A stretch of 64,000 nucleotides of DNA from Escherichia phage vB_Ec-M-J: sequence record OQ718158.1; one strand, given 5' to 3'. The notes under the pieces were generated by a model, which was not told the DNA's origin, searched no databases, and saw only the letters and a list, made by a program, of their open reading frames with translations. The position numbers and the translations under genes are program-made. This document shows, piece by piece, positions 63,673 to 64,000 of this stretch (the stretch's first letter is position 1; each line of letters opens with the position of its first letter).

Positions 63673-64000
63673 ATGACAAATAGGCCGAAGCGTAAAAAGT
63701 ATCTTAACAATGCTGATTTACTTCGTGAGATACAAAAAAGTAAAATCTCATATTGCTGGTTACTTGATAAGTGCTACAGTATGTACGATTATATCGTTTT
63801 TGATGAATCCGAAATCACAGCAGAACTTTTAGATAAAGCTAAAGCAGCACGTATTAAACGTCTCAACAATGAAATGCTTGATGCAATTCGTGAAAAAGAA
63901 GGTATGAGTGCGAAGAAAGCGAAGGAATACGCAGATGAGCACAATTTAGTACTAACTGATGTACCTATCGATGAGGTGGTTATTCGTGTAATTACCGATG
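63673..64000 (+). CDS. possible late sigma factor (T4 gp55-like); 3' end outside the window
   Basis: ATG 63673 with GGAGA Shine-Dalgarno; open to the window end. N-terminus MTNRPKRKKYLNNADLLREIQ resembles the gp55 N-terminus (...[17 protein letters not shown]..., recalled from memory). Confidence 0.4.
   Translation, partial: MTNRPKRKKYLNNADLLREIQKSKISYCWLLDKCYSMYDYIVFDESEITAELLDKAKAARIKRLNNEMLDAIREKEGMSAKKAKEYADEHNLVLTDVPIDEVVIRVITD

Follow-up and report, generated by a model that had tools for sequence, protein, structure and literature searches.

A probable gp55-family late sigma factor gene lies back-to-back with one of its probable target promoters in a Rak2-like jumbo coliphage

In the T4 late sigma factor gp55, the base pockets comprise L54, R57, F86, H95, Y97, and T99, plus N13, which cryo-EM placed in the lining of the pocket for the flipped adenine at −9; the acidic residues E70, D74, and E77 bind the β′ clamp helices of RNA polymerase (PMC7892883). 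Among jumbo phages, the gp55-like sigma factors of RaK2 (RaK2_00082), CBB (CBB_244), GAP32, and phAPEC6/PBECO4 (labeled 'RNA polymerase sigma factor') are orthologues of the protein studied here, with 73–100% identity (PMC5259590; PMC7247149). CBB_244 was described as a T4 gp55-like sigma factor (PMC5259590), and the RaK2 record names its orthologue gp55. A promoter with an unusual −35 element (TGAAACG), Porf_244, was predicted before the CBB orthologue, an ATAAATA late motif was reported for CBB and GAP32, and no gp33 or gp45 homologue was reported for CBB (PMC5259590). The related phage PA5oct is rifampicin-sensitive, has no RNA polymerase of its own, and depends on the host RNA polymerase (PMC7318152). 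Because the orthologues in RaK2, CBB, GAP32, PBECO4, and phAPEC6 are already annotated as gp55 or late sigma, the annotation of the present gene is already known and, stated as such, of low interest. Three points go further than existing annotation: a corrected start codon for the closest records, the position of the sigma gene back-to-back with one of its probable target promoters, and its place in a large 'long gp55' family with an extra domain; the residual interest lies in an uncharacterised insertion domain and in possible clamp-independent activation.

The window, which denotes the whole 64-kb stretch of DNA analysed here, ends within this gene. An ATG at 63673 opens a frame that begins MTNRPKRKKYLNN... 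and continues without a stop through 64000, giving 109 codons, and its translation (MTNRPKRKKYLNNADLLREIQKSK...) agreed exactly with the letters quoted in an earlier reading made from the sequence alone (hereafter, the sequence-only reading), which had proposed a possible gp55-like late sigma factor at the window edge. The last 2 kb of the window showed 99.3–99.8% identity with the Escherichia jumbo phages Turkey3, WPEC3, BF17, and fEgEco12 (352–384 kb), whose records label the gene "sigma factor for late transcription" or "RNA polymerase sigma factor", and 84% identity with the PBECO4 group. The full ORF beyond the window was obtained from WPEC3 (locus L001) and encodes a gp55-family protein of 279 aa, of which residues 110–279 are taken from relatives. 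Over the shared 328 nt, the window and the WPEC3/fEgEco12 ORF differed at two nucleotides, both third-position and synonymous, and all 109 residues were identical. We assign the ORF at 63673, with a probability of about 0.9, to the 5′ end of a late sigma factor gene of an Asteriusvirus-type jumbo coliphage (Rak2-like group), homologous to T4 gp55. The features of the locus are collected in Table 1.

Table 1. Features at the sigma-gene end of the 64-kb window
Feature	Position	Strand	Basis
Divergent neighbour, a gp48-like gene (baseplate tail tube) that heads the minus-strand baseplate block	62810..63541	−	Annotations of relatives
Octamer TATAAATA of the T4 late-promoter type (predicted), located 36 nt before the divergent baseplate gene	63577..63584	−	Exact match, conservation
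Predicted sigma-70-type promoter-like site GGGACA-N16-TGcTATAAT	63588..63615	+	Consensus match, position, conservation
Ribosome-binding site GGAGAG, 8 nt 5′ of the ATG at 63673	63659..63664	+	Kept in the PBECO4 group and CBB
Probable gp55-family late sigma gene, codons 1–109 of 279	63673..64000	+	ORF, PHROG 12791, full ORF of relatives
N-terminal helix, residues 10–24 (YLNNADLLREIQKSK), homologous to gp55 10–20, holding N13	63700..63744	+	Alignment, N-terminus HMM
Insertion domain, residues 21–109 in the window (about three quarters of the ~119-residue insertion, residues 21–139)	63733..64000	+	Alignment with gp55

The start codon was assessed against the annotation of the closest GenBank records. 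In WPEC3 and fEgEco12, the annotated CDS is 312 aa long and would start 33 codons earlier, at the ATG at 63574, and the coding sequence would then include the proposed promoter. No stop codon interrupts the frame from 63574 onward, and protein cluster P0001 is likewise 312 aa. However, all 35 homologues with 45–90% identity begin at the MxxxPKRKKYLNN position, the PHROG 12791 profile begins at residue 36 of the 312-aa form, and the short start position is used in CBB, RaK2, and Deifobo. In the PBECO4 group, moreover, two 1-nt indels and a TAA interrupt the upstream extension, which is listed there as a small ORF in its own right; its DNA is nonetheless 96% conserved, which fits a regulatory region. 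On the basis of the homologue and profile starts and the disrupted extension, we rejected the 312-aa start, which is very improbable, and took the ATG at 63673 as the right start of a 279-aa protein. The over-long portion of the CDS annotated in WPEC3 and fEgEco12 (window positions 63574–63672, plus strand; L001 9575–9673) spans the predicted promoter and the 5′ UTR, and the start codon in these closest records should be corrected.

Homology to gp55 was found with both the fragment and the full protein. The 109-aa fragment by itself gave a match of 5e-47 to PHROG 12791 ('sigma factor for late transcription'), so its reading frame is not a product of chance; for the 279-aa protein, the values were 1.4e-152 with this family and 1.5e-16 with phrog_234 ('late sigma transcription factor'). 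A family profile built from 36 diverse members retrieved T4 gp55 from the PDB (7D7C chain F, 7d7c_F) with E = 1.7e-7; residues 1–25 were aligned with gp55 1–25, and profile positions 151–245 with gp55 23–116, in collinear order. Comparison by hhalign with an alignment of the gp55 proteins of T4, S-PM2, and S-SCSM1 gave a probability of 98.5% (E = 1.6e-15), and tblastn reached cyanophage gp55 genes with E values of 1e-6 to 1e-8, the C-terminal half being linked directly to hundreds of them. Searches of Pfam and NCBIfam with the fragment and the full protein returned nothing meaningful, and gp55 was missed both by single-sequence phmmer against the PDB and by Foldseek. A phmmer match between the helical part of the insertion and PTS Enzyme I in the PDB (E = 0.05) was treated as chance. 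The sigma protein contains a sigma region 2-like fold followed by a helical motif, and the C-terminal 55 residues form two helices in the predicted structure. Sigma regions 3 and 4 are absent: Pfam gave no Sigma70_r3 or Sigma70_r4 match, and the structural matches covered region 2 only. Based on the PHROG, PDB-profile, and hhalign results, the late sigma identity suggested by the sequence-only reading was upheld, and the full-length protein has both features whose absence was to count against it, namely a region 2-like fold and similarity to gp55. The support for homology and fold is as strong as that for the assignment itself, and that for the mechanism proposed below is somewhat lower.

The N-terminus was tested separately because it is the only gp55-like part inside the window. 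In a MAFFT alignment of seven sequences (four family members and the gp55 proteins of T4, S-PM2, and S-SCSM1), Y10, N12, N13, L17, and I20 were invariant and stood at an equal offset from Met1. A 26-position HMM, built from the N-termini of family members only, was run on 1140 six-frame ORFs drawn from the window and the T4, S-PM2, S-SCSM1, and fEgEco12 loci; it ranked the window's own ORF first, T4 gp55 second (E = 0.0029), S-PM2 gp55 third (0.023), and S-SCSM1 gp55 fifth (0.19). The likeness to the T4 gp55 N-terminus that the sequence-only reading had noted is real: the T4 letters given there were accurate, and the HMM and the five invariant positions agree with it.

A different interpretation of this likeness is that it is coincidental, the window encoding an unrelated domain fused to a gp55-like core that starts near residue 124. 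Such a fusion would agree with the alignment of phrog_234 to residues 128–262 only, with the several cyanophage tblastn matches that start at query residues 116–124, and with a loose resemblance of residues 124–143 (KHYIVDEEGILYEVVRSHWK) to the T4 gp55 N-terminus. The HMM ranks, however, were obtained from the first 26 residues alone, the five invariant positions share their offset from Met1, and the PDB profile places residues 1–25 on gp55 1–25 collinearly with the core. Residues 123–139 are predicted to form a beta hairpin (pLDDT >90), not a helix, which makes it unlikely that residues 124–143 correspond to the gp55 N-terminus. Furthermore, N13, which is functional in T4, is kept in 34 of the 36 family members. 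These observations leave little credence for a coincidental likeness and support an N-terminal helix homologous to that of gp55.

Sequence identity between T4 gp55 (PDB 7D7C/7D7D) and the window sigma protein was only 21–23%. The two proteins share an N-terminal helix that bears N13 and the YxNNxxLLxxI motif, a region 2-like core followed by helical elements, and the residues corresponding to F86, Y97, T99, and E70, and neither has sigma regions 3 or 4. In both phages, genes 47 and 46 lie downstream of the sigma gene, and virion genes are preceded by TATAAATA-type motifs. In contrast to T4 gp55, the window protein has 119 extra residues following residue 20 and nine more within the core (206 to 216), lacks the sliding-clamp-binding sequence SLDFLYEAND with which gp55 ends, and comes from a group in which gp33 and gp45 were undetected over 132 kb. 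Cyanophage gp55 proteins (e.g., S-PM2p114) share with it the N-terminal motif, the region 2 core with Phe in place of H95, and the order of genes 55 and 47, but are ~165 aa long and have no insertion domain. The Rak2-like orthologues share the divergent baseplate neighbour, the downstream gp47- and gp46-like genes, the promoter position, and the ATAAATA motif, and differ in nothing substantive.

We compared the base-pocket residues across the 36 members of the family. F86, Y97, and T99 of T4 gp55 correspond to F203, Y223, and T225, each identical in 36/36 sequences. H95 is replaced by Phe (F221) throughout the 36, as it is in cyanophage gp55, R57 by Lys or retained as Arg, and L54 by Ile or Tyr. 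With regard to the RNA polymerase-contact residues, E70 corresponds to E187 (36/36), D74 corresponds to D191 here and is variable across the family, and E77 is not kept, being replaced by I194 in this protein and by hydrophobic residues throughout the family. As judged from the alignment, the putative DNA-reading surface is conserved and the putative RNA polymerase-binding surface only partly so.

The insertion lies between the positions of gp55 residues 20 and 21 and is predicted to consist of a small beta sheet and a long helical hairpin; it matches no known fold. An insertion profile searched against a library of 1.84 billion proteins recovered at least 430 clusters at 50% identity, 290 of them at E < 1e-10, and the matched region nearly always occupied residues ~20–170 of proteins of 230–320 aa. 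The motifs SKxSYC, YDxI, EHIP, NFxPFKH, and RSHW characterise the insertion and are kept in shorter members that drop part of the hairpin. Its place between the N-terminal helix and region 2 is, as we presume, topologically equivalent to that of the sigma-70 non-conserved region, although structural similarity to that region could not be shown. One Cys and two or three His residues of the domain are invariant or nearly so (C28, encoded at 63754–63756, and H111, H125, and H141, encoded beyond the window); located in or near the SKxSYC, EHIP, FKH, and SHW motifs, they could form a candidate metal site. Among the long family members (472–980 aa), the metagenomic proteins P0155, P0226, and P0236 carry intein-splicing or LAGLIDADG domains inside the sigma core, which makes them intein-containing late sigma factors.

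The C-terminus of the sigma protein (...EMNMIERKNEDGSI; ...ERKNEDGSI) contains no clamp-binding motif, and the motif is likewise absent from the whole enterobacterial clade. Tails resembling this motif (LFDFGD, LTYDD, or LFPFDD) are found in some distant family members, and the cyanophage gp55 sequences in the alignment also have no obvious motif of this kind. The clamp-binding tail is a feature of the T4 activation mechanism, not of the fold family. Since it is missing here, activation may not follow the T4 gp33/gp45 scheme.

The gene neighbourhood provided further information on this point. As the sequence-only reading had noted, the ORF is divergent from the baseplate module, whose first member on the minus strand is the gp48-like gene. 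Downstream of the sigma gene, relatives have genes for gp47-like and gp46-like subunits of a recombination nuclease and then one for endonuclease VII, and the order 55-47-46 is common to T4, S-PM2, S-SCSM1, Deifobo, CBB, RaK2, WPEC3, and fEgEco12. The gp47-like start lies 14 nt before the sigma stop codon (L001 10500–10513, beyond the window), and this overlap suggests that the sigma and recombination-nuclease genes are translationally coupled. The adjacent gp33/gp45-like co-activator for which the sequence-only reading had proposed a search did not appear: the neighbours are the gp47- and gp46-like genes, and phmmer searches with the T4 proteins against all ORFs of the window, L001, and the fEgEco12 locus L008 (132 kb, about one third of the 375-kb genome) found neither gp33 nor gp45. 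One fEgEco12 protein, g359 (L008 13570–14301), is labeled 'sliding clamp' by the depositor and adjoins the DNA polymerase gene 22 kb downstream of the sigma gene; as evidence for a clamp, Pfam, PHROG function, PDB phmmer, the PDB profile, and hhalign against T4 gp45 were negative or uninformative.

The loss of the tail, together with the failure to detect gp33 and gp45 in the enterobacterial jumbo-phage clade, fits a tentative reading, which we regard as rather unlikely, in which the insertion might be an undescribed RNA polymerase- or DNA-contacting module and such 'long gp55' sigma factors might activate late promoters without gp33 or a sliding clamp. If true, T4-related phages would have a second way of achieving late transcription, one uncoupled from replication. 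The large and uncharacterised 'long gp55' family, tail-less in the enterobacterial clade, offers a tractable system for testing the replication coupling of late transcription outside T4.

Next, we focused on candidate target sites of the sigma factor. The exact octamer TATAAATA was rarer than chance in the 64-kb window (2 found versus 6.9 expected), and for this reason the evidence for late promoters comes from placement and from the shorter ATAAATA core, not from the count. Both exact copies (57532–57539 and 63577–63584, minus strand) are intergenic and oriented toward baseplate genes. ATAAATA occurred in 12 copies, ten of them beyond the two exact octamers (e.g., at 2805, 6515, 7037, 18630, 34956, and 56571); nine of the 12 lie 10–70 nt upstream of co-oriented starts, a placement open to only 2% of positions. 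Among the 20 further heptamers of equal composition, 0–7 of 14–33 copies were so placed, and the top two were shifted versions of ATAAATA itself. The octamer at 63577–63584 is kept in the PBECO4 group, CBB, and RaK2 (four genera) while its flanks diverge. Based on these patterns in the DNA, the ATAAATA sites are probable late promoters, in agreement with the late motif reported for CBB and GAP32, and the octamer at 63577–63584 is probably a target of the sigma factor.

A 24-nt element, AACTAAATATA[A/T]GTATATTAACAA, was found on the minus strand at 25544–25567 and 30612–30635 with one mismatch between the copies, ~60 nt upstream of minus-strand ORFs of 1988 and 1049 aa. CTAAATA lies within the element, which may represent a strong variant of the late promoter.

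The base pockets and the motif distribution also bear on whether the protein confers promoter specificity at all. A protein with a gp55-like fold could instead serve as an RNA polymerase-binding modulator or decoy, with another factor reading the late promoters. In line with such a role, the clamp-binding tail and two of the three RNA polymerase-contact acidic residues are not conserved, the large extra domain has no assigned function, and CBB encodes a second, sigma-70-like sigma factor with regions 2–4 (PMC5259590). Nevertheless, the residues of the three T4 base pockets are invariant or conservatively replaced in 36 diverse members, which is hard to explain without DNA recognition, and the cognate ATAAATA is enriched upstream of virion genes. 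The presence of inteins inside the conserved core of some members is, in addition, typical of essential active proteins. We thus consider a modulator or decoy improbable and favour a promoter-specific late sigma factor.

For such a factor, the following sequence of events can be proposed. Host sigma-70 RNA polymerase would transcribe the sigma gene before late times from the extended −10 promoter at 63588–63615. The 279-aa product would bind the E. coli core RNA polymerase through its sigma region 2-like domain and would use the base pockets of gp55 to read one −10-like element only, (T)ATAAATA, on the non-template strand of unwound DNA. Virion genes would thereby be switched on, including the baseplate operon that lies back-to-back with the sigma gene. 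Lacking an RNA polymerase of their own, these ~350-kb phages most likely carry out late gene expression by retargeting the host enzyme to ATAAATA promoters in the manner of T4.

The predicted promoter of the sigma gene consists of GGGACA (63588–63593), a 16-nt spacer, TG (63607–63608), and TATAAT (63610–63615), with a score of 10/12 and an extended −10 element. The letters and place given for this GGGACA-N16-TGcTATAAT promoter in the sequence-only reading were correct, but the match in itself is no more frequent than chance: our scan found three sigma-70-like sites versus 2.9 expected in shuffled sequence. Because shuffled sequence yields as many sites, the case for the promoter comes from position and conservation. 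In the PBECO4 group (84% identical), four spacer bases have changed, whereas the two hexamers and the TG have not, and an extended −10 of the TGnTATAAT type is found at the equivalent place in RaK2 and CBB. The site is therefore predicted to serve the host sigma-70 holoenzyme before late times. In the 131-bp gap between the divergent genes, the minus-strand octamer at 63577–63584 lies 3 nt from the −35-like hexamer on the other strand, an arrangement that indicates back-to-back promoters, the leftward one a probable late promoter and the rightward one sigma-70-type.

A 6-bp hairpin, GGTACAAGGAATGTACC, is present at 63625–63641 (plus strand), where the sigma mRNA is predicted to begin, and is conserved in the PBECO4 group apart from one loop change. 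It folded no better than shuffled sequence (z = −0.56), and a search of 63400–64000 against Rfam gave only a sub-threshold CRISPR-repeat match and none for the hairpin. The scan had classed it as 'terminator-like', and we rejected this role because the hairpin lies between the promoter and the ribosome-binding site and has no proper T-run.

Other sigma-70-like sites were noted elsewhere in the window. A second GGGACA-N16-TGATATAAT site, with the unusual −35 hexamer and the spacing of the sigma-gene promoter, lies at 14122–14149 (plus strand) inside the ORF 14085..14414, which hints that the GGGACA sites could be a promoter class of their own, similar to the TGAAACG −35 class of CBB. At 10945–11260 (plus strand), two near-identical canonical sigma-70 promoter-like sequences with an upstream A-tract (aaaaagWtgTTGACA-N17-TGNTATAATgacca) are separated by 92 nt within a 317-nt gap free of long ORFs; this tandem pair may drive small transcripts. 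A third site, TTGACA-N17-TGATATAAT, at 40607–40638 (plus strand), precedes the ORF at 40653.
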